Part shown: one piece after another, positions 3,773 through 42,331 of the stretch
Layout: each line of letters starts with the position of its first letter
Position numbering within the stretch: position 1 is the stretch's first letter
Virus record (IMG/VR): IMGVR_UViG_3300044694_000083
Location: 31,780-95,779 of that record
Source: a virus
Taxonomy: Duplodnaviria > Caudoviricetes
Length of the DNA: 64,000 nucleotides
Strand: one strand, 5' to 3'
Position numbers and translations under genes: made by a program
The notes under the pieces: model-generated
What the model was told of the DNA's origin: nothing
Seen by the model: only the letters and a program-made list of their open reading frames with translations
The model's database searches: none

Positions 3773-3773
3773 G

Positions 3774-22180: not shown

Positions 22181-22273
22181 ACCAGAGAGCAAGTCAGGGC
22201 GTCAGGCGCATAAGTGGCCGGCCCGCCTGGTGTTTTTCACAACCCTTCAACTTTCGGGCGCCTATCGGGCGCG
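22181..22273 (+). repeat. att-like site J (core then arm)
   Basis: ACCAGA-GAGCAAG-TCAGGG(CGTCAGG); arm TCGGGCGCCTA-TCGGGCGCG 22254-22273. Confidence 0.8.
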
Positions 22274-25748: not shown

Positions 25749-25837
25749 TTCCAAATCAGGCGCGCGGCACGCCGAAAGCCGCGCGTCATCTGCATTCCAC
25801 CTGCTGAGCCACCGCGCCCGGGCGCGCATCGGGCGCA
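25743..25837 (+). repeat. att-like site I (core then arm)
   Basis: CCCTGA-TTCCAAA-TCAGGC; arm CCGGGCGCGCA-TCGGGCGCA 25818-25837; TGA is the upstream stop codon. Confidence 0.8.
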
Positions 25838-26366: not shown

Positions 26367-26428
26367 AAACAACACCATTACTCAAAAATGATTTAGAATT
26401 GGTCTGTCTAAACCATTCCAGAACAGAC

Positions 26429-26791
26429 ATGACCTCTCAACAAAACCTGACGCGCGTGGCCGAAGCCGTGCGCGACGCCGCGGCGAAGGCCGTGAGCGAA
26501 AATATCGACCTTCTGCGACGGCAGGGCCACGACCAGGCAGCGACCGCGTACGAGAACGCCGCGCGGCGCGTGATGCAGCTGGACCTCGATCCGATCCTGT
26601 CTGGCGCCGGAGTTGAGCCGGATGCCGACGAGCGCCGCGCCTTCGACAAGGCGGCCGACGCCGCACATTTCAATACCGCGCGCGTTGACGGCGCGCTGTT
26701 CCATCCTGTCACCAAGCGCGCGTTCGCGATCTGGCGCGCAGGTGTTTCGTGGGCTCGTTGTCAATCAACCGAAGGAGAACAAAATGCTTAA
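26429..26791 (+). CDS. Hypothetical protein
   Basis: ORF after AT-rich promoter-like stretch. Confidence 0.55.
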   Translation: MTSQQNLTRVAEAVRDAAAKAVSENIDLLRRQGHDQAATAYENAARRVMQLDLDPILSGAGVEPDADERRAFDKAADAAHFNTARVDGALFHPVTKRAFAIWRAGVSWARCQSTEGEQNA

Positions 26792-26866
26792 GCGCTTCAT
26801 CGACTGGATTTTCTCGATCTTCAGCCCGGCCGAGCCGGAATCCGACGAAGACTGGATGGATCGCCA

Positions 26867-28675: not shown

Positions 28676-29234
28676 ACAAAACATCGATGCCGAGCACGAG
28701 CGCGCAGCTTTCGAGGCTTCCGGAATCACCGGCAGGCTGTATCGCAACGCCACGCCGGGCGGAACGGACTACTACGAGGACAGCCACACGGAAATGGCAT
28801 GGCGCGCGTGGCAAGAACGCGCGCGCCGCTCTGCCGCTATTGGAGAGGGCAATCCTGTCGAATTCGACGGAATTAAAACCCCAGAATTCGGGGGGATTGG
28901 AGAGAGCGGACTGCCACAAGCTGCGCAGGGCGTGAAGACGTGGCAGGAGCGCATGACCGAAGCTGGTGGAAGTGGCTGGGTGCCACACTCGTTCATGGTT
29001 GCCGAGATCGCAGACCTCCGCGCCCAGCTTGCGAGCCAGAGCCAGGGAATGCCGACCGACGCGCAGATCATCGCCGCGCTGCACGCCAACGGTATCGACA
29101 CGTACCCGAGCAAATACGGCTTCGACGCGGTACAGATATCGGCCACCAGCGTGCCCGGCCTTCGCAAAGTGCTGGAGACACTCGCCGCACCGCTGCTGTC
29201 CAGCGAACAGCAGGCGACCAAGGAGGGGAAATGA
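28665..29234 (+). CDS. Hypothetical protein
   Basis: ERAAFEA..AWRAWQERA phage motif. Confidence 0.6.
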   Translation: MAAEQNIDAEHERAAFEASGITGRLYRNATPGGTDYYEDSHTEMAWRAWQERARRSAAIGEGNPVEFDGIKTPEFGGIGESGLPQAAQGVKTWQERMTEAGGSGWVPHSFMVAEIADLRAQLASQSQGMPTDAQIIAALHANGIDTYPSKYGFDAVQISATSVPGLRKVLETLAAPLLSSEQQATKEGK

Positions 29235-29734
29235 GCACCCGCCGCAAGACACCGAGGCTCGCTCGTCCCGGCGAGGTCCTTACCCTGGTCGACGAGATGA
29301 TGGCATCGCCGGTCAATCCGATGCCGGAGGCCGACGCCGCGGACCGCGTCGCCGTGGCGCGCCTGCACCTGGCGAACATCCAGACGGCGCCCGTGCCGAC
29401 CGTGATGGACTGGCGCGTGTGCGCGATGGTCGGTAACGTGGTCGAGGTGATGATCGAGCTCGGCTACATCGACGATCCGGACGATCTGCTGATGGATGGC
29501 CAGGCCGCGCTGAAGGACGCCGCCGAGCGCGCGCTGGAGCGCACCGGCGTCATCCGCTTCACGGGCGACGAGCTGCGCGTCGTGGGCGAGCTGATCGACG
29601 GGTTCGCCGACATCCTCGGCTACCTGCCGCACCGCAAGGTGATCCGGGCGTTCCGCGAGACCGACAAGCGCATGCGCGCGCTGGACGCCGGGCAGCGCCG
29701 GCCGGCCGACTACGTGGCGCGCCGGCGCGCCTGA
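29231..29734 (+). CDS. Hypothetical protein
   Basis: GGAGG RBS; stop lies in att-like core H. Confidence 0.65.
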   Translation: MSTRRKTPRLARPGEVLTLVDEMMASPVNPMPEADAADRVAVARLHLANIQTAPVPTVMDWRVCAMVGNVVEVMIELGYIDDPDDLLMDGQAALKDAAERALERTGVIRFTGDELRVVGELIDGFADILGYLPHRKVIRAFRETDKRMRALDAGQRRPADYVARRRA

Positions 29735-29822
29735 CTGTGCATCTGGGCGTCAGCGCCGGCCGCGCCGCTGTACGCCTGCATTTCACCAGCGCGGCAAACA
29801 TTTTGGGCGCCGATAGGGCGCA
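29729..29822 (+). repeat. att-like site H (core then arm)
   Basis: GCCTGA-CTGTGCA-TCTGGG(CGTCAG); arm TTGGGCGCCGA-TAGGGCGCA 29803-29822. Confidence 0.8.
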
Positions 29823-29833
29823 GAAAGTAAAAA

Positions 29834-30124
29834 ATGAGCTATTCGTTTGGTATCAAGGCAGCTGACAAGGCTGCTGCAAAGGAGGCGGTCGCCGCCAAGT
29901 TCGACAGCGAAGTGGTGGCGCACCAGCCGGTGCACGTGCGCGACCGCGCCGCTGTGCTGGCCAATGTCGGCAGCGTCATTGACCTGCTGGCCGATGACGA
30001 CACCAAGGACATCATGGTTTCGGTCAACGGCTATGTCAGCTGGGGTGCAACCGTCGACGGTACGGAGCAGTTCAGCACCGTGAGCGTCAGCGCCACTGCA
30101 AGCTACGCGACGCGCGCAGCCTGA
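29834..30124 (+). CDS. Hypothetical protein
   Basis: MSYSF..SVNGYVSW; starts 11 nt after arm H. Confidence 0.65.
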   Translation: MSYSFGIKAADKAAAKEAVAAKFDSEVVAHQPVHVRDRAAVLANVGSVIDLLADDDTKDIMVSVNGYVSWGATVDGTEQFSTVSVSATASYATRAA

Positions 30125-30205
30125 TCCATCACCCGGTCGCGCCAGCACGGGCGGCCGCCCATCTGAGACGGTCTCATGATACTGAGAATTTCCTGAGACT
30201 GCTCA

Positions 30206-30222
30206 AATCGTGACGGTATCCT
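30206..30222 (+). promoter_or_regulatory. Late promoter variant
   Basis: AATCGTGA-CGG-TATCCT upstream of terminase operon. Confidence 0.55.
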
Positions 30223-30252
30223 GAAGCCTGACTTGTTGAGCTCCAGGAACCC

Positions 30253-30903
30253 ATGCCTCGCCCGAAGGAAGAACGAAAAGACGAGATCATTGCCGCCATC
30301 CGCCAGCACCTGCGACTGGTCGGCCCGCGCGACTATGATGGTCTCATGGCGAAGTACCCGGAGATGAGCCGGGCAACGTTCTACCGCTATCTCAAGGCAG
30401 CGCGCGAGCAGGAGGAGGCCAGCGCCGCGGCCCATGGAACGGGCGCGCTCCGTCTTGCGCAGCAGCGGATCCGCAGCCAGGTCGAGCCACCGGACAAGGT
30501 CCAAGCCAAGATCAAGGCGCACCTGCCCACGGCGCCGTCGCCGGCCGTGGTCGCCGCCGACCCGGTCAACGCCTCGCGCGCGTTCCAGTTCTTCGCGTTC
30601 TTCAACCAGATCGTCGGCGACGCCGAGCTGCTGCGCGGCACGGCCGTCATCAAGAACGACGACGGCACCGAGAAGGTCCGCAACCCGGCCATGCTGGAAA
30701 AGAGCATGCGCGGCCGCCTGGCGATCCTGGACACCTACCTGCACAGCGTCGAGGCGGTCTACAACATGGAGCGCATCCGAGAGCTGTATGACCTGGTGAT
30801 CGAGGAGGTGGGCAAGGCCTCGCCCGACATCCAGATGGCGGTGCTGGCGCGCCTGCGAGAGCTGGACAACCGCCGCGGCCTGACCATGAACGGGAACGTC
30901 TGA
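30253..30903 (+). CDS. Putative terminase small subunit
   Basis: N-terminal HTH (MSRATFYRY); coupled directly upstream of TerL. Confidence 0.6.
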   Translation: MPRPKEERKDEIIAAIRQHLRLVGPRDYDGLMAKYPEMSRATFYRYLKAAREQEEASAAAHGTGALRLAQQRIRSQVEPPDKVQAKIKAHLPTAPSPAVVAADPVNASRAFQFFAFFNQIVGDAELLRGTAVIKNDDGTEKVRNPAMLEKSMRGRLAILDTYLHSVEAVYNMERIRELYDLVIEEVGKASPDIQMAVLARLRELDNRRGLTMNGNV

Positions 30904-33014
30904 TGGCGTTCGGGAAGAAGAAGGCGCCCAAGGTCGACCCGTTTGGCAGCCTCGGCGAGCTGGTGGCGCAGCTCGAGGCGCGCACGGGCTTCCGCGTCGA
31001 CGTCAGCGGAATCGGCGACAAGACGTTCATCGAATGGTGCGAGGACCTGGCCGCCAAGGGCCTGAAGGTCGACGGCAAGCCGTTCCGCCTGGACGATCGC
31101 CCGGCGCTGCGCCCGATCTACGAGGCCATCCCCAGCACGCGCGAGGAGGCCAAGGACGCCATGCTGATCGCCATGAAGGCGACCCAGCTTGGCCTGACGG
31201 TGTGGGAGGTGCTGGCCAACATCTACATGGCGACGAAGTGGGAGCCGGTTTCGATCGGCATGTTCATGCCGTCGATGACCACGGCCATCCACAAGTCCGA
31301 GCACCGTTTTATGCGCATGGTGCGCTCGGCGCCCGACCTGTACCGCCTGCTGATCAACGGCCGCGACGCCGATGGCAATGCGCAGAAGGTCGGCGAGGGC
31401 AACGTGCTAACAAGGAAGGTCGGCGAGTCGCTGCTGCTGTTCCTCTGGACCACCGGCAAGGTGACGACCGAATCCGTGCCGATGGACGTCGTCACCCTGG
31501 ACGAGGTTCAGGAGATGGCCCTGGACCACATCGACAAGGTCCGGGCCCGTATGGGCGATTCCGAGGTGGCTTTCACGCTGATGCTGTCCACGGCCAACAT
31601 GCCGGACCTGGACATCCACTTCTGGTACCTGGAAGGCACGCGCGAGGTCTGGCACACCGAATGCCCGCACTGCAAAGCCATGTCCGACCTATCGGACCCG
31701 GCCGGAATCTTCCCGGACAAGTCGATCGGCTACAACACCGGCCAGCACGCCGGCGCGCCGATGAACGAATACGTCTGGACATGCCCGAGCTGCGGCGGCT
31801 GGATCCAGGATCCGCAGATCGGGCGCTACATCGTCACCAATCCGGGCGCCAACCCGAAAATCCGCTCGTTCCTGCTGCCGCGCACCATCTCGCCGAAGAT
31901 GACGCCGCGGAAGATGATCGAGGCCTGGCGCCGCGCGAAGACCGGCAACCAGAAAAAGAGCTTCTACAACCGCACGCTGGCGCGCCCGTACATCGACGCC
32001 GACCAGCTGCCGGTGACGATGGCGCACTGCCTGGCCGCCATGGAGGCCGGCATTGCCGCTGGCATCAAGTGGGAGAAGAAGCACGACGGCGCCAGCAGCT
32101 ATTTCTGCGGCATTGACCAGATGGGCGGCTTCAACGCCGTCATCATCAAGAAGCGGCTGCCGAATGGCCGCCAGGCGGTCGTGCACGTCGAGGCGGTATT
32201 CGACAACGATCCGTTCGAGCGCTGCGCCGAGCTCATGAACATCTTCCGGATCGAGGTCTGCGTGGTTGAGCAGCTGCCGAACGTGAACGATGCGCGCCGG
32301 TTCGCGAACCGCTTCCCTGGCCGCGTGTTCCTGGCCGGCTATGCCGACCTGCGCGACGACCAGATGGTGTGGGGCGACGACTTGTCGAAGTCGGACCGGC
32401 GCACGTCCGAGGACGATCGGTCGCGCTACACTGTCACGCTGAACCAGTACAAATGCATGCAGACCGCGCTGTTCCGCGTGCGTGAAGGCCACTGCATTTT
32501 CCCGAACGCCGACGACCTGGTGCAGGACGTGGTCGAGAACGGCGAGACGAAGCGGATCCCGATCCTGCGCGACTGGGTTTTCGTCCACTACACGAAGACC
32601 GCGCTCGTGGTCGACGACGGCTCGGAGACAGTCAGCGGCAAGCCGAAAAAGGACATGGAGGCGCGCAAGCTGCGCATGAAGGTCCTGAAGGTCGGCATGG
32701 ACCCGCACTACAGCTACGCCAACATGCTGTGCGACGTGGCCTGGGCCCGGTCGCACGGAACGACCACGTTTATCCTGCCCGACACAACACCAACCGGAGC
32801 GCCCGTGATCAAACCAGAAGACATCGGCGCCGCGCCGCTGATCAATGCCGTGCACGAGCTCCGCCAGGAGGCTATGGCCGGCACGTGCGGCCGCTGCACG
32901 GCCTACGACGAGACCGACGGCATGTGCATGGAACGCTGGTTCAAGGTGAAGGCCTCGGATCCGGCCTGCCCGATGTTCGACGAGGACCCGTACGCGGGCG
33001 CTGCGCCCGAATAG
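30903..33014 (+). CDS. Terminase large subunit (GpA-like)
   Basis: MKATQLGLT, TLDEVQEM, CPHC/CPSC, FYNRTLARPY, CGIDQ. Confidence 0.88.
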   Translation: MAFGKKKAPKVDPFGSLGELVAQLEARTGFRVDVSGIGDKTFIEWCEDLAAKGLKVDGKPFRLDDRPALRPIYEAIPSTREEAKDAMLIAMKATQLGLTVWEVLANIYMATKWEPVSIGMFMPSMTTAIHKSEHRFMRMVRSAPDLYRLLINGRDADGNAQKVGEGNVLTRKVGESLLLFLWTTGKVTTESVPMDVVTLDEVQEMALDHIDKVRARMGDSEVAFTLMLSTANMPDLDIHFWYLEGTREVWHTECPHCKAMSDLSDPAGIFPDKSIGYNTGQHAGAPMNEYVWTCPSCGGWIQDPQIGRYIVTNPGANPKIRSFLLPRTISPKMTPRKMIEAWRRAKTGNQKKSFYNRTLARPYIDADQLPVTMAHCLAAMEAGIAAGIKWEKKHDGASSYFCGIDQMGGFNAVIIKKRLPNGRQAVVHVEAVFDNDPFERCAELMNIFRIEVCVVEQLPNVNDARRFANRFPGRVFLAGYADLRDDQMVWGDDLSKSDRRTSEDDRSRYTVTLNQYKCMQTALFRVREGHCIFPNADDLVQDVVENGETKRIPILRDWVFVHYTKTALVVDDGSETVSGKPKKDMEARKLRMKVLKVGMDPHYSYANMLCDVAWARSHGTTTFILPDTTPTGAPVIKPEDIGAAPLINAVHELRQEAMAGTCGRCTAYDETDGMCMERWFKVKASDPACPMFDEDPYAGAAPE

Positions 33015-33092
33015 CGCCCGAACGGCGGCGCCGGCGCCCGGTTCCCTATGAAAACCCGGCCCGGCGCCCTGATTGCTACTCTGGGCGTCAGG
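33002..33092 (-). repeat. att-like site A (arm then core on + strand)
   Basis: TGCGCCCGAAT-AGCGCCCGA 33002-33021; CCCTGA-TTGCTAC-TCTGGG(CGTCAGG) 33067-33092. Confidence 0.85.
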
Positions 33093-33825
33093 CCGCGGCT
33101 GCGGTGTCAGCGGCTGAGCAGATTGAATGCTGCTGCTGCCACTCGAGGAACTTGTGCATTCCCAAGGGCTCTATTGCGCTCCAGCCTGAAGGGAATCCCA
33201 TCAGCCACTCGCTCCACTCTGGGTTCACGCGGCCAGTCGATGTGGTGGATAGTCCTTCCACTTCCGCCAGACGGCTGGCCAAAGTGTCCGACTTGCCTTT
33301 GTGGCGCCCTCCACACTTCTTCCCGATCGACGCCGTCAGCGTAGGCCAGAATCCAGATCCTCTCTCGCTCGTGCGGAGCGTCGGCATGGTGCGCTCCGAT
33401 GACGCCCCATTCCGCATCATACCCCAGCGCGGCCAGGTCCCCGAGAACTCGTCCGAGTCCTCGAGCAGTGAGCATTGGACTGTTTTCCACCCACACGAAG
33501 CGCGGTCGTACTTCGCGAACGATGCGATGCTGGTGCGACCATAGTCCACTGCGCTCGCCATCGATGCCAGCTCCCGAACCGGCTGCGCTGATGTCCTGGC
33601 ATGGAAAGCCGCCAGAAACGACATCAACAATTCCTCGCCATGGTCGGCCGTCAAAAGTTGTGACGTCAGACCAAATCGGGAAAGGTCGAAGGATTCCGTC
33701 GTTTTGTCGTTGCGCCAAAACGGTTGCTGCGTAGGCATCACGCTCAACTGCACATACGGTTTTCCATCCAAGGAGGTGCCCGCCGAGAATTCCTCCACCA
33801 GCGCCCGCGAAAAGAGCCAGCTCAT
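33088..33825 (-). CDS. Overlapping alternative-frame MTase subunit carrying motif IX
   Basis: Open 245 codons inside MTase gene; WPT and NPEWSEWLMGFPSGW; true start uncertain. Confidence 0.65.
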   Translation of the reverse strand: MSWLFSRALVEEFSAGTSLDGKPYVQLSVMPTQQPFWRNDKTTESFDLSRFGLTSQLLTADHGEELLMSFLAAFHARTSAQPVRELASMASAVDYGRTSIASFAKYDRASCGWKTVQCSLLEDSDEFSGTWPRWGMMRNGASSERTMPTLRTSERGSGFWPTLTASIGKKCGGRHKGKSDTLASRLAEVEGLSTTSTGRVNPEWSEWLMGFPSGWSAIEPLGMHKFLEWQQQHSICSAADTAAAA

Positions 33826-33829
33826 TCAT
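33107..33829 (-). CDS. C5-cytosine DNA methyltransferase, main subunit
   Basis: LFAGAGG, GGFPCQD, VENS, HERERI, ALGNA (motif X); no motif IX. Confidence 0.9.
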   Translation of the reverse strand: MNELALFAGAGGGILGGHLLGWKTVCAVERDAYAATVLAQRQNDGILRPFPIWSDVTTFDGRPWRGIVDVVSGGFPCQDISAAGSGAGIDGERSGLWSHQHRIVREVRPRFVWVENSPMLTARGLGRVLGDLAALGYDAEWGVIGAHHADAPHERERIWILAYADGVDREEVWRAPQRQVGHFGQPSGGSGRTIHHIDWPREPRVERVADGIPFRLERNRALGNAQVPRVAAAAFNLLSR

Positions 33830-33957
33830 GGTTTCCTGTAAGTAGTGTTAGATCCGGTACTTCAGCGGATCAATTGAACTGGCTCAATTTTACTCGAAAA
33901 TAAGTAATGCGTGTTGGTGGAAAGCGGGAAATGCCGTGAAGGTGCGGGTATTTCTGG

Positions 33958-34048
33958 TGCGCCCGACTAGCGCCCGAAGTCGTCAGCGCGGGCCAGCTCT
34001 CCAGGGAAAAGCCGGCCAAAAACCCAGATCCGTTATCTGGGCGTCAGG
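33958..34048 (-). repeat. att-like site B
   Basis: TGCGCCCGACT-AGCGCCCGA; CCCAGA-TCCGTTA-TCTGGG(CGTCAGG) 34023-34048. Confidence 0.85.
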
Positions 34049-34796
34049 CTGCGGCCCGTGGCATGGCGAGCTCGTACGCATGCGCGACCCTGGCATCGGC
34101 CGTCGCGAAGTGCTTGGCGTCGTCTTCCATGCCGACGAACAGCCGTCCGGTGTTGGCGCACGCGACGCCTGTCGTCCCGCTGCCCATAGCAAAGTCCAGC
34201 ACCACCTGGCCGGCATTGGTGTAGGTGCGCACCAGGTATTCCATCAGCGCCAGCGGCTTTTGCGTCGGGTGCAGCTTGCTGCGCTGCTTGTCACTGGAGA
34301 AGAACTGGACGCTGCGCGGGTAGCGGCTGGTCGAGTCGTAGACGGTCAACTGGTTGCCCTGGCCGTAGCATTCGCTCGCGACGGTCTTGCGCTTCGTGCT
34401 CTTGCGGGCGTGGCCGTGCGTCATCTGCGGATTGTAGGTTGGCTGGCGGCTGCAGAAGACAAGCACCGTTTCGTGCGCGCGCAGCGGCGCCTTCTTCGCG
34501 TTGAGGAAGCCGGTCGCATTTCCCTTCTCCCAGACCCAGTCGTGCCGGAACCACCCGGGGTTGCTCATCACCAGTGCGCTGGAAAAAGGCTGGCTGGCGG
34601 TAAACACGATCACGCCGCCCGGCTTCACGATGCGTCGCAGCTGCTCCCACATTTGATCGAGCGGGATAACCGCATCCCACGCGTTGCGCGTTGTTCCATA
34701 AGGAGGGTCACAAACAACGGCGTCCACGCTGGCCGCCGGCAGGTTACGCATCGCCTCGATGCAGTCGCCGAGGTGCAAGGTATAGGGTCTGGTCAT
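34044..34796 (-). CDS. N6-adenine/N4-cytosine DNA methyltransferase (beta class)
   Basis: DPPY, HPTQKP, VLDFAMGSGTT. Confidence 0.92.
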   Translation of the reverse strand: MTRPYTLHLGDCIEAMRNLPAASVDAVVCDPPYGTTRNAWDAVIPLDQMWEQLRRIVKPGGVIVFTASQPFSSALVMSNPGWFRHDWVWEKGNATGFLNAKKAPLRAHETVLVFCSRQPTYNPQMTHGHARKSTKRKTVASECYGQGNQLTVYDSTSRYPRSVQFFSSDKQRSKLHPTQKPLALMEYLVRTYTNAGQVVLDFAMGSGTTGVACANTGRLFVGMEDDAKHFATADARVAHAYELAMPRAAA

Positions 34797-34859
34797 AGAA
34801 AGTAGTGGAACGTCACGCCCGGCGCGTGGCCGGGTGAAAACGCGTGCAATTTAGTGAAG

Positions 34860-34960
34860 TGCGCCCGATCGGCGCCCGAATTTACCTCCTGCTGCTGGAG
34901 GTCATTGTATCATAAAAGATAAATCCCATGGGCAACCAGATTCAGCATCTGGGGGTCAGG
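34860..34960 (-). repeat. att-like site C
   Basis: TGCGCCCGATC-GGCGCCCGA; ACCAGA-TTCAGCA-TCTGGGGGTCAGG; 34947-34960 identical to attP 1601-1614. Confidence 0.88.
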
Positions 34961-34980
34961 CTCGCGCAGCGACGGAGCTC

Positions 34981-35003
34981 CGTCGTGAAACGATAATGCG
35001 GCC
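34981..35003 (+). promoter_or_regulatory. Late leaderless promoter
   Basis: CGTCGTGA-AAC-GATAAT-6nt-ATG. Confidence 0.7.
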
Positions 35004-35681
35004 ATGAGCACCATCCTCTTCATCAAGGCGCGTGACCTGCGCGACACGCACACCAGCGATATGTTTGCCACGCACCTCGAGACGCGGACGCGAAAAGATG
35101 GGGTGACCCAGCAATACCACGTGGCAGCGCCGAAGCCGGCCGCGCCTGCGCATGCTGGCCATGACAGCCGGCGCGAGGCCATGGCTGCGTTCGATGGCGA
35201 GCGCTCCGACGCTGTGGCGCTGAAGCGCGGCGACAAGTGGCTGGCCGTGCGACGTAGCGAGGCCGAGAAGCACCTGGCGGACGGCTGGAAGGATCCGAGC
35301 GGGGAGGTCGGGAAGCCGGCAACTGTCAGCGAGGCGCTGCGCGACCTGGCCGGCAGCAAGGCCAAGAGCATCGACTTCGACAGCCTGACCTACCTCAAGA
35401 ACACGGTCGGCCTGAAGGGGCTGAGCGAAGATGAGGCGCGCCACGTGGGCAACGCCATCAGCCTGATCTCGCACATGCGCGACACCGGCCGGCTGAGCGG
35501 CACGCACATGCTGCAGATCCGCGACAAGCTGCGCGGCAAGGCAGTGCTGGACATGGTCGAGCAGGTCGCCGCCCGGATGAAAGAGGTTCGCGATCCCCTC
35601 GACGCGGTGCGCGAGTATTTCTACGGCCGTGAGAACATGACCAAGGCGCTCGTCTTCCTGCGCCCTATCGGCGCCCGATAA
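35004..35681 (+). CDS. Putative internal head (cargo) protein
   Basis: N-term ILFIKA, RTRKDG hairpin, C-term MTKALVFLR; late promoter. Confidence 0.6.
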   Translation: MSTILFIKARDLRDTHTSDMFATHLETRTRKDGVTQQYHVAAPKPAAPAHAGHDSRREAMAAFDGERSDAVALKRGDKWLAVRRSEAEKHLADGWKDPSGEVGKPATVSEALRDLAGSKAKSIDFDSLTYLKNTVGLKGLSEDEARHVGNAISLISHMRDTGRLSGTHMLQIRDKLRGKAVLDMVEQVAARMKEVRDPLDAVREYFYGRENMTKALVFLRPIGAR

Positions 35682-35733
35682 CGGCGGCGCGCCAGCATCC
35701 GCAGAGAGCGGACAACCAGACTCAGGGTCTGGT
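35659..35733 (-). repeat. att-like site D
   Basis: TGCGCCCTATC-GGCGCCCGA; ACCAGA-CTCAGGG-TCTGGT 35715-35733. Confidence 0.8.
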
Positions 35734-35750
35734 GCTCGCCGCGCGGCCGC

Positions 35751-35773
35751 CGTCGTGACCCGACAATCTTTAC
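35751..35773 (+). promoter_or_regulatory. Late leaderless promoter
   Basis: CGTCGTGA-CCC-GACAAT-6nt-ATG. Confidence 0.7.
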
Positions 35774-36184
35774 ATGCAAACCATACTCTTCCTGAAGGCG
35801 CGCGTGGGCCCATACCTGCGCCGCGGCAAGTGGGTGTCCGGCTACGAGGGGCGCGCCTCGCGCGTCGAGACGCCGGCCGGTCAGCGCGACATGTTCAAGC
35901 AGCCGCCGAACCCGTTCAAAGGCGTCGACCCGGTCGCGGCGACGCCGGACCTGTTCGAGGGCCAAGTGCCGCCGAAGCAGGATCTGCCGACGGTCGAGCA
36001 CGACGGCGACACCTGGTACATCGTCAGCACGGGCGCCGTGGGTGCCGACGGCAGGGTGATGGCGCACCTGTCGAGCGCGACGCGGATGCAGGGATCGATG
36101 CCGAAGAAGGTCGTGGCATGGATCACGCCGCCCGGCCGCGCCGGCGAGCTCGCCAAGGCTATCCTGCTGATGCGCGCAGCATGA
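35774..36184 (+). CDS. Putative internal head (cargo) protein
   Basis: N-term ILFLKA, C-term LAKAILLMR; late promoter. Confidence 0.6.
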   Translation: MQTILFLKARVGPYLRRGKWVSGYEGRASRVETPAGQRDMFKQPPNPFKGVDPVAATPDLFEGQVPPKQDLPTVEHDGDTWYIVSTGAVGADGRVMAHLSSATRMQGSMPKKVVAWITPPGRAGELAKAILLMRAA

Positions 36185-36220
36185 GCCCGATCGCCTGGTG
36201 GTTCATGTGGCTGGGTCTGT

Positions 36221-37180
36221 TCACGTCACCGTCAGCATCGCCAGCGCGGCGAGAGCCTGAGCCGCCTTCGTCGGAGCGAGCAGCTTGAGCGGCAGCAGCC
36301 AGAGCAGTGTGGCGAGCGGCGTGTCTCGCCTGACGTGCTTACGGTAGAAGGCGGGGGTGATGCTGGTCACTTCCTTGAATGACGTCGTGAAGTGCGATTG
36401 GCTCGCGAACCCGCATAGAAGTGCAATTTGCGCCAGGCTTTGTTTGCTGGTTGCCAGGTAATATTTGGCGGTATCCACTCGTCGGCGTAACACGTAAAGC
36501 AGCGGTGTCCGCCCCGTCGCAGCCTTGAACGCGCGTGTGAAGTGCGATGGACTGAGGCCGAGCATAGCAGCGAGCTCATTGGATTTGATCGATCGGTCAA
36601 TATTCTGGTCAATATATGAATCGACCTGAGCGACCTCTAATTCTCCGATGGGCTCTGTCTCTTGTATCTGCCGATTCTCCCTGGTTTTGCATACAACCTT
36701 CAGAACGCGATAGACGATCGACAAAATCAGGGCATCGATCAGTGGTGGCAGGGCGATTCGTGGTGTTTCCAGAGAGATCGATTTCAGTAGCGCGACCGCA
36801 GTGGCCAGAGTCATGTTTGGCCGCACCTCGAAATACACGAAATTGCAGTCGTAAAGATCACTGTTCATGGCAAGAACGCGGTTGAACCAACGCTCCGGAA
36901 TAATCACGGCAGCCGTAATCATGGGTTCATTCGTCCGCACATGGACAGTGGTGTTTTTCGGCACAAAAAACACCGAATTGGGAGCGTATTCCTCGCGCGA
37001 ATGGTCCTCCCCATTTACGAGCAGTGATCCTTTTGCTTTTGTTTCGAGCAGGAATATCGCATGAGTGTCGAAACGAAGGGTGGCTGGTCCGATCGCATCG
37101 GTGAATACATGCACCTCCAAATCGCGGATTGATCTGACCGTGTGTGTTTCCGATTTCCAAAACGACAGAGTCTCCGGCAT
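36221..37180 (-). CDS. AraC-family transcriptional regulator (moron)
   Basis: LSPSHFTRAFK..IALLCGFASQSHFT..TPAFYR; visibly lower GC. Confidence 0.9.
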   Translation of the reverse strand: MPETLSFWKSETHTVRSIRDLEVHVFTDAIGPATLRFDTHAIFLLETKAKGSLLVNGEDHSREEYAPNSVFFVPKNTTVHVRTNEPMITAAVIIPERWFNRVLAMNSDLYDCNFVYFEVRPNMTLATAVALLKSISLETPRIALPPLIDALILSIVYRVLKVVCKTRENRQIQETEPIGELEVAQVDSYIDQNIDRSIKSNELAAMLGLSPSHFTRAFKAATGRTPLLYVLRRRVDTAKYYLATSKQSLAQIALLCGFASQSHFTTSFKEVTSITPAFYRKHVRRDTPLATLLWLLPLKLLAPTKAAQALAALAMLTVT

Positions 37181-37212
37181 TGCTACCTCCAGCTATAGGA
37201 GGCGTAACATTT

Positions 37213-37306
37213 TGCGCCCGATGGGCGCCCGAAGCCAGCCTGGGCGAGTCAAAAACTCGTGCGGAGCCATGCTTGTCGATCATGACGCCCAGATTAAAGA
37301 TCAGGG
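37213..37306 (-). repeat. att-like site E
   Basis: TGCGCCCGATG-GGCGCCCGA; (TGACG)CCCAGA-TTAAAGA-TCAGGG 37288-37306. Confidence 0.85.
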
Positions 37307-37474
37307 CGCCGACTTTCGCTCGAACGCGAAGTGGCCGAGGATCCCCAGCAGCAGGATCGCGATCACGTGCGTGCTGTAGTCGTGCACGCCGAAGGCCTGG
37401 GCCTGGTCGACGGCGAACATGCCAAACGCCGTCAGGCCGGCCACGAAGAATATTTTGCTGATCACGTTGTTCAT
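37301..37474 (-). CDS. Small two-TM membrane protein (57 aa, not in ORF track)
   Basis: MNNVISKIFFVAGLTAFGMF..IAILLLGILGHFAFERKSAP*; GAGGA RBS; stop in core E. Confidence 0.55.
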   Translation of the reverse strand: MNNVISKIFFVAGLTAFGMFAVDQAQAFGVHDYSTHVIAILLLGILGHFAFERKSAP

Positions 37475-37524
37475 TGTTCAAAATCCTCGGGTCTCGTTTT
37501 TGAGTATCGATAGTTCATGCCATG

Positions 37525-37716
37525 TCAAGTGCCAGCCTTGACAGAGTCTGCACGCCTGCGTACCGGGCTGAACTGGTTGTCCCAGTACGCCTGCCACATG
37601 GCGTTCCACGCCGCGCGCCGCGTCGTGCCGTGGCCGACGACGAATATCCGGCGACAAGTATAGACGCCGTCGCGGTAGGAGATGCGCGGCTTGATGGCGA
37701 TCACGGGCCCGGTCAT
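37525..37716 (-). CDS. Hypothetical protein
   Basis: ATGA-coupled. Confidence 0.5.
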   Translation of the reverse strand: MTGPVIAIKPRISYRDGVYTCRRIFVVGHGTTRRAAWNAMWQAYWDNQFSPVRRRADSVKAGT

Positions 37717-38039
37717 GGCATGGCCCTCCCGAACTCGACAGCAGCGTTGAATATGGCCTGTCGCATCGCTGCTGCAGTGTCGCCCTCGTAGAAATGCTTC
37801 GTCAGCGGGCCGCCCGCCGGCAGCACCTCGATTCGACGTCCGGACACGACGCGGTGCATCACGTCGAATTCAAGATAGGCCGCCAGATCCAGCGCCTGAC
37901 CGCTATCCCGCCTTGGATCCCATAACATGTCGCGTGCCACGTTCTGGCGTTGCTCGGCAAGCCACCAGAAATCCCACTCGTGCCGCTTTTTGCCGGCGGC
38001 TTTCGCCGCCAGCGCCAGGAGCTCGCGCTCATTCTCCAT
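37713..38039 (-). CDS. Conserved phage hypothetical protein
   Basis: RELLALAAKAAG..WDP..GQALDLA..RQAIFNAAVE. Confidence 0.65.
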   Translation of the reverse strand: MENERELLALAAKAAGKKRHEWDFWWLAEQRQNVARDMLWDPRRDSGQALDLAAYLEFDVMHRVVSGRRIEVLPAGGPLTKHFYEGDTAAAMRQAIFNAAVEFGRAMP

Positions 38040-38286
38040 CGCGGGCCTCCTTCCACTCCAGGAACGGCACGCGCACGATGCGATGGAAGTCGTCAGCCGC
38101 TCGTGCGTTCGTGTCGAGCTCGTTGCGGCTCTCGATGCCGCACGCGGTCAGGATGAATTCCTTGGCGGCCGCCTCGTCGAACTTGACGCCGTCGCCGGTT
38201 TCCCCGGCCAGGTGCTCCAGCCAGGCACAGAACTGCGGATCCCGGCAGAACGTGCACGCCATGATGCAGAGGTCGCGAGTGCTCAT
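38029..38286 (-). CDS. Conserved phage hypothetical protein
   Basis: CRDPQF..CGIESRNELD. Confidence 0.65.
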   Translation of the reverse strand: MSTRDLCIMACTFCRDPQFCAWLEHLAGETGDGVKFDEAAAKEFILTACGIESRNELDTNARAADDFHRIVRVPFLEWKEARDGE

Positions 38287-38440
38287 TGCGGGGCTCCATT
38301 CACCAGAAACCAAAGCAGCAGACAGCCAATCACCGCCAGACCGATCAGCGCGCGCCGCTCGCGCACCGTCAGCGGCCGCTCCTTGCGCAACGGGCAGCGG
38401 TCGCTCTGGCCGCAGTTGTGGTTGCAGCAGGTCGGGCGGC

Positions 38441-39283
38441 TCACGGTTGCACCTTGGCGATGATGTCGGACAGTTTTATTTGACGCACAACCGTTCCCTC
38501 AAGCCCGTTGTCGCATTTCATGACGGCAACGTAGCACGCGTCACGCACCGCCTCGGCGATCGCCATATCGCGCCCGCCGCGGTTATCTTCGCTGCGCCGG
38601 CCAACCGGCGGGATCCACATCTCGCCGCCGCGGTCCGTGTAGCCATAGCGATAGAGCGTGCGCGTCGCGCGATCCAGGTCGGCTTGAACCTTTTCGAAAT
38701 CGGATAGCGCTCGCTCGTGCATTTCGGCCGCGACGTAGGCGTTTTTGCCGCTTACGATCGTCGGCAGCACCAGCTGGCCGTTATCCACCGCGTGGCGCAG
38801 GGCGGCGTTGGCGAAGTGCTGAAGGCTCGACATGCGCACGTCGCCCTGATCCACCTCGCGCCAGGCTCGCAGCATCTCGCCGTCCTTCATCCCCGTCACC
38901 GGGTACTGCTTCGCCGGCGCCGGCCATGCCCACAGCTCAGGGTTCATCTCGCCCCATGTCGGCCTTGCGGTGACTCGGCTGCCGTCCTTCTTGTCGACCA
39001 GTTCGTCGCCCACGAATACCGGCTTGCCGTCGATGTGGCCGAGCGGGGTCATGACGAGCGTGCGCTCCTCGGCCCGCGAGTAGTACGCCGGCATCGCACC
39101 ATTGACGTCCCACTTCATAAGCACGTCCTCTTCCTGGGTTTGGATCAGACCGAGGATGTTGCAGCAGGATCTGTCGCGGTGGTCCCACTTCAGGACCTCG
39201 ACTTTCTCGCCGCTCGCGCAGCAGAACGGCGCTCCAGCGCGCGCGTGTTCAAGGTTAAACGGTCGGCTTTCTTGTGTTTTCAT
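38441..39283 (-). CDS. Mosaic hypothetical protein
   Basis: RPFNLEHARAGAP N-terminus; starts 7 nt after arm F. Confidence 0.65.
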   Translation of the reverse strand: MKTQESRPFNLEHARAGAPFCCASGEKVEVLKWDHRDRSCCNILGLIQTQEEDVLMKWDVNGAMPAYYSRAEERTLVMTPLGHIDGKPVFVGDELVDKKDGSRVTARPTWGEMNPELWAWPAPAKQYPVTGMKDGEMLRAWREVDQGDVRMSSLQHFANAALRHAVDNGQLVLPTIVSGKNAYVAAEMHERALSDFEKVQADLDRATRTLYRYGYTDRGGEMWIPPVGRRSEDNRGGRDMAIAEAVRDACYVAVMKCDNGLEGTVVRQIKLSDIIAKVQP

Positions 39284-39290
39284 TGTGCGT

Positions 39291-39385
39291 TGCGCCCTAA
39301 CGGCGCCCGTTGGTTAATCGAAATTTCTAGAAGAAATTGTATCAGAAAAGATTAAGCGCGTGCGTAACCTGATTGGTTGTCAGGT
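39291..39385 (-). repeat. att-like site F
   Basis: TGCGCCCTAAC-GGCGCCCGT; ACCTGA-TTGGTTG-TCAGGT 39367-39385. Confidence 0.8.
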
Positions 39386-39598
39386 GCTCACGATGCGGCT
39401 GATGTATTCGCGCAACTGGCGGCGCACAGCCCAGAGCTTCTGCGCGCAGCCCGGCCGATTGAACAGGTACTCGCTCGGCGTGAGCATGTAGGAGCGTCCG
39501 AGCTGCTGCTCGATGCCGCCGACAGTCACGACGCGTACCATGATCCACTCGACACAGCCTCCCTTGTGACAGAGCTTGCGATTGCGAACGCGCTTCAT
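39380..39598 (-). CDS. Hypothetical protein
   Basis: ATGA-coupled; stop in core F. Confidence 0.5.
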   Translation of the reverse strand: MKRVRNRKLCHKGGCVEWIMVRVVTVGGIEQQLGRSYMLTPSEYLFNRPGCAQKLWAVRRQLREYISRIVST

Positions 39599-40044
39599 GC
39601 CGCCATCCTCATCATGATTTTGTCGAGCTCGCCCAACTGATGGCCGGTGCGTGGCCGCGACTCGTTGCGGTGGTACCACGCGCGGCGCGCGGCCAGGTGG
39701 TCCTTCTTGCGCTGCTGCTTCGTCAGCTTGTGGTCCTCGCCCGGGCCGGCGGTGAAAACGGCGATGTAGTCGCGACCCTGGTTCTCCGGCGGCAGGTGGT
39801 CCTCGATGTGGCACAGGCCCTCGGCGTGCAGCTTCCTGACGGCCTTGCGCGCGGTCTCGTACTGGATGTCCAACTTCTCCGCGAGCTGCTTCGTAGTGCC
39901 CGGCATCGCGGCCAGCAGCCGCTGGCGCGTGTCCGACTTCGTCAGCGGCGTCGCCAGCTTGTTGCGCCACTGGGTGTAGTGGTTGTTGCAGAGGCCGCGC
40001 GCGCGGACCTGGTGCGCGCAGCCGTCGCGGGTGCAGGTCTTCAC
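39595..40044 (-). CDS. Zn-finger plus HTH protein
   Basis: CTRDGC..RGLCNNHY; TTKQLAEKLDI HTH. Confidence 0.65.
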   Translation of the reverse strand: MKTCTRDGCAHQVRARGLCNNHYTQWRNKLATPLTKSDTRQRLLAAMPGTTKQLAEKLDIQYETARKAVRKLHAEGLCHIEDHLPPENQGRDYIAVFTAGPGEDHKLTKQQRKKDHLAARRAWYHRNESRPRTGHQLGELDKIMMRMAA

Positions 40045-40268
40045 GCGGCAGCCCCGCGTAGGTGCGGCGCATGCTGGCAGCCGGCGCAGCCCTGGTCGCG
40101 CGCGCTGGCGTCGTACTGGCAGTCGGTGGACATGCGGAAGGGTGCCTGGACATAGCTCGCGACCGTCACCAGGTTACCCATCCCGTCCATGATATCGCGG
40201 TAACCGTCCTGCACGTCGACCGGCGCGCCAGCCACCGGCCGCGGCCTGTTGTTGCAGCCGTTAATCAT
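40041..40268 (-). CDS. Small Cys-containing protein
   Basis: GCNNR..DCQY..GCAGC. Confidence 0.5.
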   Translation of the reverse strand: MINGCNNRPRPVAGAPVDVQDGYRDIMDGMGNLVTVASYVQAPFRMSTDCQYDASARDQGCAGCQHAPHLRGAAA

Positions 40269-40752
40269 GGTTTCCGCCTTCGCTGTCGTCGGCCGGTGTC
40301 GCGCGCTCCTCCGGTGTGATCGTGAACAAAAAGGATGCCAGCGGCAGCACGTCGTCGAGCGGGTCGTTGGGCATGGCGCCGGTAGTCTTGGCCCACTCCC
40401 TCTTGAAGGCCTCGAGGTCTTCGTCGCTGAACTCGCCGCGTATTTCAACCAGGCCGGGCAACAGCATCGCTTCGGCCCGCTCCAGCCGCTCGATCAGCTC
40501 CAGCACGGCGGCGGGGTTGGCGGCGGCGATGAAGAGTCCGTTCGCCTCATTGAGGTCCTTGCCCGGGACAATCTCCGGGTTTCGCATGGTGCCAACGTCG
40601 CACGATGGCGAGAAGATCACCGAGCCGTCCACTGCCTTGATCTGCGGCGTGTGCATCGTCGGGTAGAAGCCGCCGTGGGGCAGCGCCTCCCACGGCCCCG
40701 GCGTCGCCGCCTGCGCCAGCTCCTTGAGGCGGGTGAGGTCGAGGGCGGTCAT
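40261..40752 (-). CDS. Ead/Ea22-like protein
   Basis: LKELAQAATPGPW..FIAAANPAAVLELI. Confidence 0.8.
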   Translation of the reverse strand: MTALDLTRLKELAQAATPGPWEALPHGGFYPTMHTPQIKAVDGSVIFSPSCDVGTMRNPEIVPGKDLNEANGLFIAAANPAAVLELIERLERAEAMLLPGLVEIRGEFSDEDLEAFKREWAKTTGAMPNDPLDDVLPLASFLFTITPEERATPADDSEGGNHD

Positions 40753-40997
40753 TGGGCACCTCCGCCAACCTCGACCGGGCGCGTCGTCTTCCCGTGGCGC
40801 TCCTCCCACGCGGCTGAGCCGCGGCAGTTCGTGAAGTAGCGCGCCGAGCCGCCATCGAAGAACCTGTAGACCGTGCAGCCGTCCTTGGTGAACAGGGTGT
40901 CGACCACGAACTCGCTGTTCACGCGCTGGCGGGTCTCCGGGTCCTTCGAGCAGCCTGCCAGGAGCGCGAGGGCGATCAGGATGATGGTGGATTTCAT
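40749..40997 (-). CDS. Small lipoprotein (DUF4884-like)
   Basis: Lipobox LAGC; LFTKDGCTVYRF. Confidence 0.75.
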   Translation of the reverse strand: MKSTIILIALALLAGCSKDPETRQRVNSEFVVDTLFTKDGCTVYRFFDGGSARYFTNCRGSAAWEERHGKTTRPVEVGGGAQ

Positions 40998-41038
40998 ACC
41001 TTCCTTTCATCGCGCCCGGCGGACCGGGCGCATCGGGG

Positions 41039-41275
41039 TTATTTTTCGGGCGACGTGATCGCGTCGAGGTAGCTGATGGCGCGAACCCCCGGCGGCCCAT
41101 TGTGGCGGCCTTTGCCGAGAACCAGCGCGCCCTGCTTTGGCACGTTGGCGCGCTCAGGCCCGAAGCCGTCATAGTCGTCGATGATCTGGTCGAGCCCGAA
41201 CTTTCGCTTCAGCCGGATTGCGTTCGTGGTCTTGCCGCAGCCGGCCGGACCGTAGACGTAGAGGGAGGCGGCCAT
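41039..41275 (-). CDS. Miniature P-loop protein
   Basis: VYGPAGCGKTT..IIDD in 78 aa. Confidence 0.6.
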   Translation of the reverse strand: MAASLYVYGPAGCGKTTNAIRLKRKFGLDQIIDDYDGFGPERANVPKQGALVLGKGRHNGPPGVRAISYLDAITSPEK

Positions 41276-41502
41276 TATGCGGCGACCGGGATCAGGCCCT
41301 TGCGGTCGGCTTTCTTCGCCATGCGGTAGATGGCGCGGCCGCATGCTGGCAGGAGGTTGCGCTGACCGAGGAACTGGCCACGCGGCGCGCCGAACAGGTC
41401 GAACAGCATGATCGGTTTCGTGGGCACGAGTTCGACTTCACGCGGGTGCTTGCCGATGGCACGAACGGCGCGGCGGGCGATTTTGGACTGTTTGTGGGAC
41501 AT
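41275..41502 (-). CDS. Hypothetical basic protein
   Basis: AAGGA RBS. Confidence 0.5.
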   Translation of the reverse strand: MSHKQSKIARRAVRAIGKHPREVELVPTKPIMLFDLFGAPRGQFLGQRNLLPACGRAIYRMAKKADRKGLIPVAA

Positions 41503-41525
41503 GGTTTTCCTTGTGGTGGGGTTGA

Positions 41526-41876
41526 TTAATAGCCGGTGCGCATGCGGTTCACGATCTGCTGCGCGTGCATGCCGATCATGGCGTTGAGGATGTCGCCGGC
41601 GCTTTCCTTGATTACCTGCTGGACGATTGCGCTTGCTGCAGGTCCGCCCATGCCCCAGGTTTCCTGGTACTCGGGTTTCTTCAGCTCTTCCTTCACGACC
41701 GCTTCGAACTGCTCGCGGATCTGGTTGGCGATCATCTCCTGCAGCTTGTTGCGGCGGAAGTGCGCGACCTGCTCTTCGACCAGGCGGCCGAGCTCGTCTT
41801 CCGGGATCAGGTTGGCGATGGTTTCCTGCACGCGTTCCTTGACGCGCTGCTCGAGGGTGGCGATCTGGCCGCTCAC
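41526..41876 (-). CDS. Hypothetical protein
   Basis: GTGA-coupled to acpP. Confidence 0.6.
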
Positions 41877-42130
41877 GCCGACACCTTGGCAGTGATGTAG
41901 TCGATGGCCTGCTGGACGGTGGTGATGCCGCCAGCTTCGTCGTCCGGGATCTCGATTTCGAATTCGTCCTCGATCGCCATGACGAGCTCGACCTCGTCCA
42001 GGCTGTCGGCGCCTAGGTCGTCGACGAATGTCTGTTCCGGCTTCACGTCTGCTTGTGCGATGCCGAGCTGTTCGGAGATGACGCGCTTAATGCGGTCGGC
42101 GGTGGTGCTGGCCTTGATATTGGTGTCCAC
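41873..42130 (-). CDS. acpP: Acyl carrier protein
   Basis: [40 protein letters not shown]. Confidence 0.93.
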
Positions 42131-42142
42131 GTTTTCCTTGAT

Positions 42143-42236
42143 TGCGCCCTATACGCGCCCGGGCTGGTTGGCGTGCCGGCAAAAGGCCGGCTGGTGTTGG
42201 GGTTCCGCTGGCTGACGCCCAGACCTCAAATCAGGG
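42143..42236 (-). repeat. att-like site G
   Basis: TGCGCCCTATA-CGCGCCCGG; (TGACG)CCCAGA-CCTCAAA-TCAGGG 42218-42236. Confidence 0.8.
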
Positions 42237-42307
42237 CAGGCGTCGCGCTACGATGTATCAATAATAATCAACGCTAGGAAAATAATCAAGCGCAACAATC
42301 CGCCTGT

Positions 42308-42331
42308 CGTCGTGACGCTACCCTGTTTAGC
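42308..42331 (+). promoter_or_regulatory. Late leaderless promoter of portal
   Basis: CGTCGTGA-CGC-TACCCT-7nt-ATG. Confidence 0.7.

Follow-up and report, generated by a model that had tools for sequence, protein, structure and literature searches.

Small helix-turn-helix (HTH) proteins such as Apl of phage 186 and Cox of phage P2 are recombination directionality factors (RDFs) that act on direct repeats spaced one helical turn apart, at the attachment (att) site and at early promoters (PMC7498355, PMC3936717). In the cluster A mycobacteriophages L5 and Bxb1, stoperators are many asymmetric intergenic sites that lie in one orientation and serve as polar elongation blocks; each is a single 13-14-bp site bound by the immunity repressor (PMC9283540, PMC6550527). 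In T4-type phages, promoter early stem-loop cassettes (PeSLs) bracket variable accessory genes and mark indel or replacement junctions between close relatives. PeSLs consist of host-type early promoters and terminators and recombine by homology (PMC2839356, PMC4122927). Here we describe ten composite boundary modules in a 64,000-nucleotide stretch of phage DNA, called the window (bases 31780-95779 of the 95.8-kb IMG/VR record IMGVR_UViG_3300044694_000083, which is rated complete), together with a block of mostly opposite-strand accessory genes that separates the gene for the large terminase subunit (terL) from the portal gene. The reading that we consider probable is that the modules follow transcription and that the accessory block was relocated, inverted, in a common ancestor, the modules not being the demonstrated agent of that move. 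The modules seem to be previously undescribed. The paper on Morganella phage Mecenats66, which deals with the clade, makes no mention of the modules, of their polarity rule or of a relocation relative to Pseudomonas and Aeromonas relatives (PMC9503643).

The genome is that of a temperate-type myovirus with 64% G+C. Its closest relatives are a phage genome referred to here as G001 and the Bordetella phage PHB04 (vB_BbrM_PHB04, NC_047861), and TerL identity is 82-90% among the phages that share the terL/portal layout, which is thus an old one. The Pseudomonas phages Jeremy, Dolphis, and Touem01, the Aeromonas phage ST4, some enterobacterial phages and Mecenats66 (PMC9503643) are distant members of the terminase/portal clade. 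Among the short metagenome contigs, only L039 was informative.

Each module joins two motifs. The first is a tandem repeat, GGGCGC-N5-GGGCGCA (TGCGCCC-N5-GCGCCC on the other strand), in which an 8-bp unit T(C/A)GGGCGC recurs at an 11-bp period, approximately one helical turn. The window has 12 copies of it where 0.92 would be expected, and shuffled sequence never reached 12. The second is a 17-bp palindrome, CCWGA-N7-TCWGG, found 10 times against 0.15 expected. Every palindrome pairs one-to-one with a tandem repeat outside the phage attachment site (attP), and there is no solitary palindrome. These counts bear out the ten repeated sites that a first-pass annotation had marked from the sequence. 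The modules are:

22182-22273, plus strand: module J, palindrome 22182-22198 and, after 57 nt, tandem repeat 22256-22273; 5 nt on is the start of gene 22279
25744-25837, plus strand: module I, palindrome 25744-25760, in which gene 25404-25748 ends with TGA, and tandem repeat 25820-25837, 7 nt ahead of the start of gene 25845
29730-29822, plus strand: module H, palindrome 29730-29746 with the stop of gene 28940-29734, tandem repeat 29805-29822; it heads gene 29834, a terS-like gene and terL, and its tandem repeat and leader are conserved in G001
33002-33084, minus strand: module A, tandem repeat 33002-33019 overlapping the terL stop, 48-nt spacer, palindrome 33068-33084
33958-34040, minus strand: module B, tandem repeat 33958-33975, 48-nt spacer, palindrome 34024-34040
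34860-34952, minus strand: module C, tandem repeat 34860-34877, palindrome 34936-34952
35659-35732, minus strand: module D, an orphan, tandem repeat 35659-35676, 39-nt spacer, palindrome 35716-35732
37213-37305, minus strand: module E, tandem repeat 37213-37230, palindrome 37289-37305 with the stop of gene 37301-37474
39291-39384, minus strand: module F, tandem repeat 39291-39308, palindrome 39368-39384 with the stop of gene 39380-40153
42143-42235, minus strand: module G, in the divergent region before portal, with tandem repeat 42143-42160 and palindrome 42219-42235; nearby, 42289-42261 on the minus strand reads as a sigma-70-like TTGATT-17-TATTAT

On the local gene strand, a module of ~95 bp overall reads as palindrome, spacer, (TTC)GGGCGC-N5-GGGCGCA and the next start codon. 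Seven modules have a spacer of 57-59 nt between palindrome and tandem repeat. The spacer is shorter in A and B (48 nt) and in D (39 nt); its length changes in steps of one helical turn. The palindrome starts 74-76 nt before the tandem repeat in six of the seven G001 modules in the stretch examined (the other at 67), in all six of PHB04, in all seven of Jeremy and in all five of ST4. This helical phasing suggests that the proteins bound to the two motifs touch. The TGA stop of the upstream gene falls in the palindrome or 4 nt before it in 6 of 10 modules. In I, H, E, and F, the left half of the palindrome (CCTGA) includes the stop; for A and B, the stop belongs to an additional CCTGA and precedes the palindrome by 4 nt. 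A co-directional start codon follows the tandem repeat at a distance of 5-132 nt in eight modules.

What kind of site is the palindrome? Its W positions are complementary in only 5 of the 10 modules, and it is therefore taken as a double-stranded DNA site rather than an RNA or cruciform hairpin. A nut-like or terminator RNA hairpin was ruled out on the same ground. The modules likewise differ from integron attC sites, because the W positions are not compensatory and the integrase of this phage is P4-type with an arm-binding domain. Two promoter identities were rejected for the tandem repeat. The pattern GG-N10-GC of a sigma-54 promoter fits, but the predicted transcript start would fall on or past several start codons and past the ribosome-binding sites of PHB04. 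A promoter for a phage RNA polymerase was discarded because no such polymerase was found among the large open reading frames (ORFs) tested (a helicase with an intein, a primase and others).

Module direction was read from palindrome to tandem repeat; the first-pass annotation had read it from core to arm. As it had stated, J, I, and H point along the plus strand and A-G along the minus strand, and the terminase pair lies between the inward-facing H and A, which flank gene 29834, the terS-like gene and terL. What accounts for this flip? Module polarity is the direction of the flanking genes in all five genomes examined. For example, 7/7 non-attP modules of Jeremy and 5/5 modules of ST4 are on the strand of the flanking annotated genes, and all of them are on the terL strand because the whole accessory block of these phages is upstream of terL and co-directional with it. 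In this phage, in G001, in PHB04 and in the fragments L016 and L039, the modules after terL are reversed, as are the local genes. Since polarity follows transcription in every genome, the flip amounts to convergent transcription, and no recombination is needed to explain it. Many asymmetric intergenic modules in one orientation to transcription (in this phage, Jeremy, ST4, and PHB04) recall stoperators. Unlike stoperators, the module is composite, ~95 bp long, and has one half in common with attP.

The first-pass annotation had also described terL and portal as lying about 9 kb apart across mostly opposite-strand genes. From the end of terL to the start of portal, the gap is 9,317 nt and holds ~14 minus-strand accessory genes. 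The genes of the gap and its flanks are:

29834-30124, plus strand: 96-aa gene, phrog_28387, function unknown, the first gene behind module H
30253-30903, plus strand: terS-like gene, so labelled by its conserved position upstream of terL only
30903-33014, plus strand: terL, large terminase subunit of the gpA type (Pfam GpA_ATPase)
33088-33825, minus strand: DNA methyltransferase-like cassette gene
34044-34796, minus strand: N6/N4 DNA methyltransferase
35004-35681, plus strand: leaderless-type gene with a late box at 34981-34997
35774-36184, plus strand: gene with a late box at 35751-35767; homologues in G001 and, directly after terL, in L039
36221-37180, minus strand: AraC-family regulator, a clade orthologue and relocation marker
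37301-39283, minus strand: small genes 37301-37474, 37525, 37713, 38029-38313, 38283, and 38441
39380-42130, minus strand: genes 39380-40153, 40261-41172 / 40749-40997, 41275, 41526, and 41873-42130
41873-42130, minus strand: acyl-carrier-like gene
42332-44092, plus strand: portal gene, first of the late block, 61% identical to the annotated PHB04 portal, with a late box at 42308-42324

The terS-like gene has no match to a Pfam or PHROG family; a gene of this kind is directly upstream of terL also in PHB04, G001, L016, L018, and L021/L022. Approximately ten small minus-strand ORFs are found from 37301 to 41876. The gene calls are ambiguous at 40261-41172 / 40749-40997, of which 40749-40997 matches a Jeremy gene annotated as DUF4884. 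The two plus-strand genes inside the gap that had been assigned to late promoters do have a late box before each. The first of them (35004-35681), said to be bounded by C and D, indeed sits between the palindrome of C and the tandem repeat of D, and its last seven codons are the tandem repeat of D.

The late box CGTCGTGA occurs at 34981 and 35751, 23 nt before the plus-strand genes 35004 and 35774, and at 42308, 24 nt before the portal start. It heads at least a dozen further plus-strand late genes, which usually begin 6-7 nt after the -10-like ANNAT, right at the ATG. The terS-like gene and terL are without a late box, whereas portal and the two plus-strand genes of the gap have one. Because terL lacks the box and portal carries it, the two belong to separate transcription units, and the junction between them can take up DNA without disturbing either. 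G001 carries a different late-promoter gene at the position of gene 35004 (L023 8165-8900), so that the plus-strand islet stays put while its cargo changes. The stretch QGQLGSCTAN of this G001 gene may, around its Cys, form a peptidase motif of the papain-like (C1) kind.

How common is such a gap? It is 0.06 kb in Mecenats66 and 0.09 kb in L019/L020 (TerL 64%), about 1.4-2.1 kb in the enterobacterial phages, Dolphis, and ST4, and 3.0 kb in Touem01. It reaches 3.4 kb in L018, 3.9 kb in Jeremy, and 7.3 kb in L022, and then 9.3 kb in this phage, 12.4 kb in G001, and 13.4 kb in PHB04. Wherever genes are annotated or ORFs readable, the gap is mostly opposite-strand. The opposite-strand terL-portal gap is an ordinary, clade-wide layout, visible in the published PHB04 record (NC_047861), where a terminase of the same gpA-type clade is followed by 13.4 kb with opposite-strand genes before portal. 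The gap of Jeremy contains seven minus-strand genes and none of the nine tandem sites of that genome. Likewise, the gaps of L022 and L018 contain opposite-strand genes, and neither module motif is present in the stretches examined. Such module-free gaps are what the first-pass annotation had named as refuting its proposal that past inversions or insertions at the sites had produced the gene order. The part of that proposal that finds support is that the order is derived by rearrangement, as the synteny of the AraC gene indicates; the sites as its agent find none.

The AraC-family regulator is informative because its full-length matches among 50,697 phage records are confined to this clade, which makes it an orthologue. 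It is upstream of terL and co-directional with it in Jeremy, Touem01, and ST4. In this phage, G001, and PHB04, it is downstream of terL on the opposite strand. Genes 34044, 38029, and 40749 of the block also have homologues in the Jeremy block upstream of terL (38029-38313 has them in the upstream blocks of both Jeremy and Touem01), and 3 of the 4 genes, counting AraC, keep their transcriptional order relative to Jeremy. The change of side and strand of AraC, together with the upstream homologues in Jeremy and with the adjacent terL and portal of L019/L020 and Mecenats66, points to a derived gap order in this phage, G001, and PHB04, and an old relocation with inversion in their common ancestor is likely. 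The order AraC, plus-strand islet, methyltransferase is common to all three. The simplest reading of this synteny would be a single event followed by cassette turnover.

One alternative is that the block was built piecemeal in place, by independent cassettes that arrived with their own modules in a permissive junction, with no inversion or relocation en bloc. It could draw on the gradual rise in gap size over the clade from 0.06 to 13.4 kb and on a gap content that differs greatly even among this phage, G001, and PHB04; of the block genes, a minority is common to this phage and G001, and PHB04 shares almost none at the DNA level. A dip of the GC content to 58.5% at 36-38 kb would also fit. Furthermore, the segment 33584-33828 within the methyltransferase-like gene shows 86% DNA identity with the Salmonella phages S9-5 and ABTNLsp11242 and 75-79% with Ralstonia phages, a pattern that points to horizontal spread. 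Gene 3245-3880 of the leftward early block has a homologue (60% identity) inside the terL-portal gap of Jeremy, which indicates that cassettes move between leftward-read regions. However, a piecemeal origin does not account for a clade orthologue that switched both side and strand, for the order retained relative to Jeremy, or for the order kept in all three Bordetella-type genomes, and we regard it as extremely unlikely. The PHB04 gene gp048 ("transcriptional regulator"; L001 26691-27600) is annotated at 600 nt, while its AraC homology spans 26736-27524; the annotated start is probably too far downstream.

Taken together, the preferred reading would run as follows. The modules would be ~95-bp composite protein-binding boundary elements whose polarity reports the reading direction of their block, with the palindrome at or just past the stop of one gene and the phased tandem repeat a few to ~130 nt before the start of the next. 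The terS-like gene and terL would close a rightward early/middle series that carries modules J, I, and H, and portal would open the late series under its own late promoter. Part of the rightward accessory block, including AraC, methyltransferases, and modules, would have been relocated inverted into this junction in the common ancestor, and cassettes would later have been swapped in and out with joints at palindromes. The protein that binds the tandem repeat may act as a polar regulator or insulator of transcription. On this reading, the terL-portal junction is a well-bracketed hot spot (0.06 to 13.4 kb among relatives) and a clean case in which to study how a phage can gain accessory DNA with its timing intact, and the Bordetella-type clade is set apart from its Pseudomonas and Aeromonas relatives by the relocation.

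Which protein would read the tandem repeat? The relevant features are at the left end of the window:

135-1427, minus strand: tyrosine integrase (int), P4-type, with an N-terminal Arm-DNA-bind_3 domain (Pfam PF13356) and Phage_integrase
1457-1876, plus strand: intact attP, with identical tandem repeats 1457-1474 and 1732-1749 around a tRNA-Arg(ACG) 3' fragment at 1583-1640
4209-4451, minus strand: HTH_17 protein of 80 aa (Pfam HTH_17, 1.8e-6), phrog_66 "excisionase and transcriptional regulator" (6.4e-7)

The attP copies of the tandem repeat (GGGCGCAGGTCGGGCGCA at 1457 and 1732) are 275 bp apart, with further half-sites at 1818-1876. G001 and Jeremy have an identical tandem pair ~275 bp apart around the same tRNA-Arg fragment, beside int. 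PHB04 has a near-identical pair (GGGCAC in one half of each) around a core derived from tRNA-His, and ST4 has two perfect-motif repeats 222 bp apart beside int, its attP core not being located. In all six temperate relatives, copies of the repeat lie on both sides of attP, next to int, and they are 273-275 bp apart in the five with a visible core. In Touem01, the attP repeats (GGGCCCCAATCGGGCCCCA and GGGCCCCACATGGGCCCCA) and the intergenic repeats both read GGGCCCC instead. Because the repeat changes jointly at attP and at the intergenic sites, a single phage protein most likely reads both, and the candidates on sequence grounds are the arm-binding domain of the integrase and the HTH_17 protein.

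Identity of the HTH_17 protein is 80% in G001, 67% in PHB04, 66% in ST4, 58% in Jeremy and lowest, 44%, in Touem01. The N-domain of the integrase is 74% identical in Jeremy and ST4, 68% in PHB04 and lowest, 60%, in Touem01; in the phage collection, it occurs in this clade only, plus one weak 37% match in an unannotated faecal contig. By these comparisons, the integrase N-domain appears to be an equally good candidate reader. Repeats on both attP arms are more typical of integrase arm sites, as in lambda-type systems. The integrase of ST4 (record 33293-34462) is a natural chimera, its N-terminal arm-binding domain being 63-74% identical and its core-binding and catalytic parts 16-19%. The integrase frame of Jeremy (L025 / record 40752-42005) contains one in-frame TAG in a six-frame match.

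The candidates recall the two described kinds of att recognition. The sites resemble those of Apl/Cox RDF systems in that a tandem repeat of 11-bp period marks both attP and the DNA ahead of transcription units; an HTH_17 excisionase/regulator homologue of the phage is a candidate binder. Unlike Apl/Cox sites, the repeat is on both sides of attP and at ten dispersed loci rather than one switch region, always with a phased palindrome. They also resemble the att sites of heterobivalent integrases (lambda Int, P4-type Int), because the integrase has the arm-binding domain PF13356 and tandem repeats surround a tRNA-derived core. The modules are conserved in the three host groups examined, the phages of Bordetella, Pseudomonas, and Aeromonas. 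Were either the arm domain of the integrase or the excisionase-like protein to bind them, the integration machinery would double as a genome-wide regulator or insulator of accessory genes.

Several smaller points concern the attP sequence itself. A likeness of the tandem half-site to the tRNA 3' end (TTCGGGCGCG) was put down to chance, since the same repeat occurs in PHB04, whose tRNA-His has another 3' end. A third half-site, CCTGACG, mimics the variable loop and T stem of tRNA-Arg in this phage and G001 and is absent in PHB04; with two lineages only, this likeness is suggestive. A constant distance from attP core to arm was not confirmed in three phages (138, 140, and 143 nt).

Several observations weigh against the preferred reading. 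The functional readings of the modules are all inferred from sequence. Several methyltransferase paralogues per genome leave their orthology ambiguous, and the gene order of Touem01 is partly interleaved, so that a single en-bloc event is not proven. The position of sigma-70-like promoters relative to the module varies: upstream of G, inside C and F, and downstream in Jeremy, where good sigma-70-like or late-type promoters lie past the tandem repeat. This inconstancy makes the module a self-contained boundary element rather than a fixed promoter part, and any regulatory logic of the modules is tentative. No gene comes after four of the tandem sites (1457, 1732, A, and D). Ahead of 1732, A, and D lies the 3' end of an opposing gene, and 1457 is just upstream of the int start. 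Module A is an orphan at a convergent junction with no minus-strand gene after it; the orphan at the terL stop is present also in G001, PHB04, L016, and L039, and Jeremy has an orphan module before an opposing toxin-antitoxin pair. A polar block against incoming transcription, of the kind that stoperators provide (PMC9283540), would suit these orphan sites better than an operator role. Lastly, three observations are predicted likewise by a recombination model. H and A form an inverted pair around the terminase operon. The module has the look of half an attP, with a core-like inverted repeat (5-bp arms around a 7-bp spacer) and arm repeats. Three homology breakpoints relative to G001 fall exactly in palindromes B, C, and F: homology over the methyltransferase 34044-34796 (83% DNA identity) extends from within the spacer of palindrome B to within that of palindrome C, and at F, it runs from tandem repeat to palindrome (39292-39391) and stops there.

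In that recombination model, the integrase acts on the modules as miniature att sites, and inversions or insertions at them made the order of terL, inverted cassettes and portal, which may still change. The tandem repeat is indeed of the same kind as the attP arm repeats, and the palindrome resembles the tRNA-Arg anticodon stem-loop in attP (CTAGA-N7-TCTGG). The phased distance between palindrome and tandem repeat would be intasome-like. L039 has the orphan tandem repeat at the terL stop followed directly by the late gene like 35774, without both methyltransferase cassettes; this indel right after terL, like the breakpoints relative to G001, shows that cassette gain and loss continues. However, the likeness of the module to a core plus one arm is one of form only. 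No two of the ten palindromes have the same 7-bp spacer, and no spacer coincides with the anticodon loop of attP. Canonical tyrosine-recombinase exchange needs identical overlap sequences, and it would therefore be blocked between any two modules. A and G, the ends of the block, are direct rather than inverted repeats, which excludes a simple site-specific inversion of the block, and terL is co-directional with portal in all ~15 relatives, with neither an orientation polymorphism nor a recombination product seen. Nor do the palindromes keep step with the integrase. ST4 modules retain YCWGA-N7-TCWGR at -75 despite an integrase unrelated in its core-binding and catalytic domains, and the palindromes of Touem01 end in TCTTG while its attP core retains TCTGG. 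The modules, moreover, lie outside attP, and opposite-strand gaps exist without them. As for the breakpoints, the palindromes sit at gene ends, where mosaic joints fall anyway. The joints would be accounted for just as well by homologous or illegitimate exchange between short conserved motifs, as in PeSLs (PMC2839356, PMC4122927), as by integrase shuffling. We consider it quite unlikely that the integrase made the present order in this way. The stronger claim, that the modules are working miniature att sites at which a heterobivalent integrase bridges arm repeats and palindromic core and occasionally exchanges, inverts, or captures cassettes, we hold to be decidedly improbable. If it were true, the accessory regions would be a phage-borne, integron-like gene-shuffling system that brought the block to its site between terL and portal and might reorder it even now.

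It is also conceivable, if unlikely, that the modules are ordinary promoter/terminator cassettes served by host RNA polymerase and an unrelated regulator, with no link to integrase or excisionase, their repetition aiding general recombination. Some spacers have terminator-like hairpins with T runs (PHB04 26604, modules B and G), and TGATACAAT, an extended -10-like box in the spacers of C and F, is conserved in G001. The regulatory stretches are more conserved relative to G001 than the genes they flank, and PeSLs are a precedent at cassette borders (PMC2839356, PMC4122927). As with PeSLs, repeated motifs stand at the borders of variable genes, with junctions at palindromes B, C, and F. Unlike in PeSLs, the conserved parts are two putative protein-binding motifs tied to the integration machinery, and promoter- or terminator-like elements are in some spacers only. 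The position of the repeat around attP in all six temperate relatives and the joint change of attP and intergenic repeats in Touem01 argue against such cassettes, as do the inconstant promoter position and the strict helical phasing, which suggests one bridged complex. Furthermore, the modules are absent from Mecenats66, which is without the integrase: it has no match to this integrase or to AraC, its terL is next to portal, and its single palindrome copy, inside terL, is at chance level. A scan for consensus promoters and terminators gave no information: it returned 2 promoters, with 2.9 expected, and 14 terminators, with 11 expected.

Additional features were observed in the late genes and elsewhere in the window. 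The late box can be written GTCGTGA(C)-N3-ANNAT, usually with the ATG 6-7 nt on, and every copy is on the plus strand (window 24128, 24438, 34982, 35752, 42309, 46854, 49048, 55766, and 60833, plus seven upstream of the window). From the position of the box relative to the ATG, late mRNAs would be mostly leaderless. Several copies are directly behind terminator-like hairpins. The late proteins 35004, 35774, and 55788 begin with M-x-(T/P)-I-L-F-(I/L)-K-A, and the G001 homologue with MAILFLKA; this shared N-terminus may serve as a tag for targeting or processing, or may reflect a constraint that leaderless initiation sets. No Rfam match was found in the window. The remaining features are:

9072-11825: helicase gene with an intein (Hint domain and LAGLIDADG homing endonuclease domains, Pfam)
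20430-20850: low-GC divergent control region with several inverted repeats, for example 20544-20570/20638-20664

A 38-nt arm of this control region (20430-20467) pairs with 26370-26407, 5.9 kb away, at 82% complementarity. The inverted repeats at 20430-20850 and 26370-26407 are likely operator or early-promoter elements of another kind.

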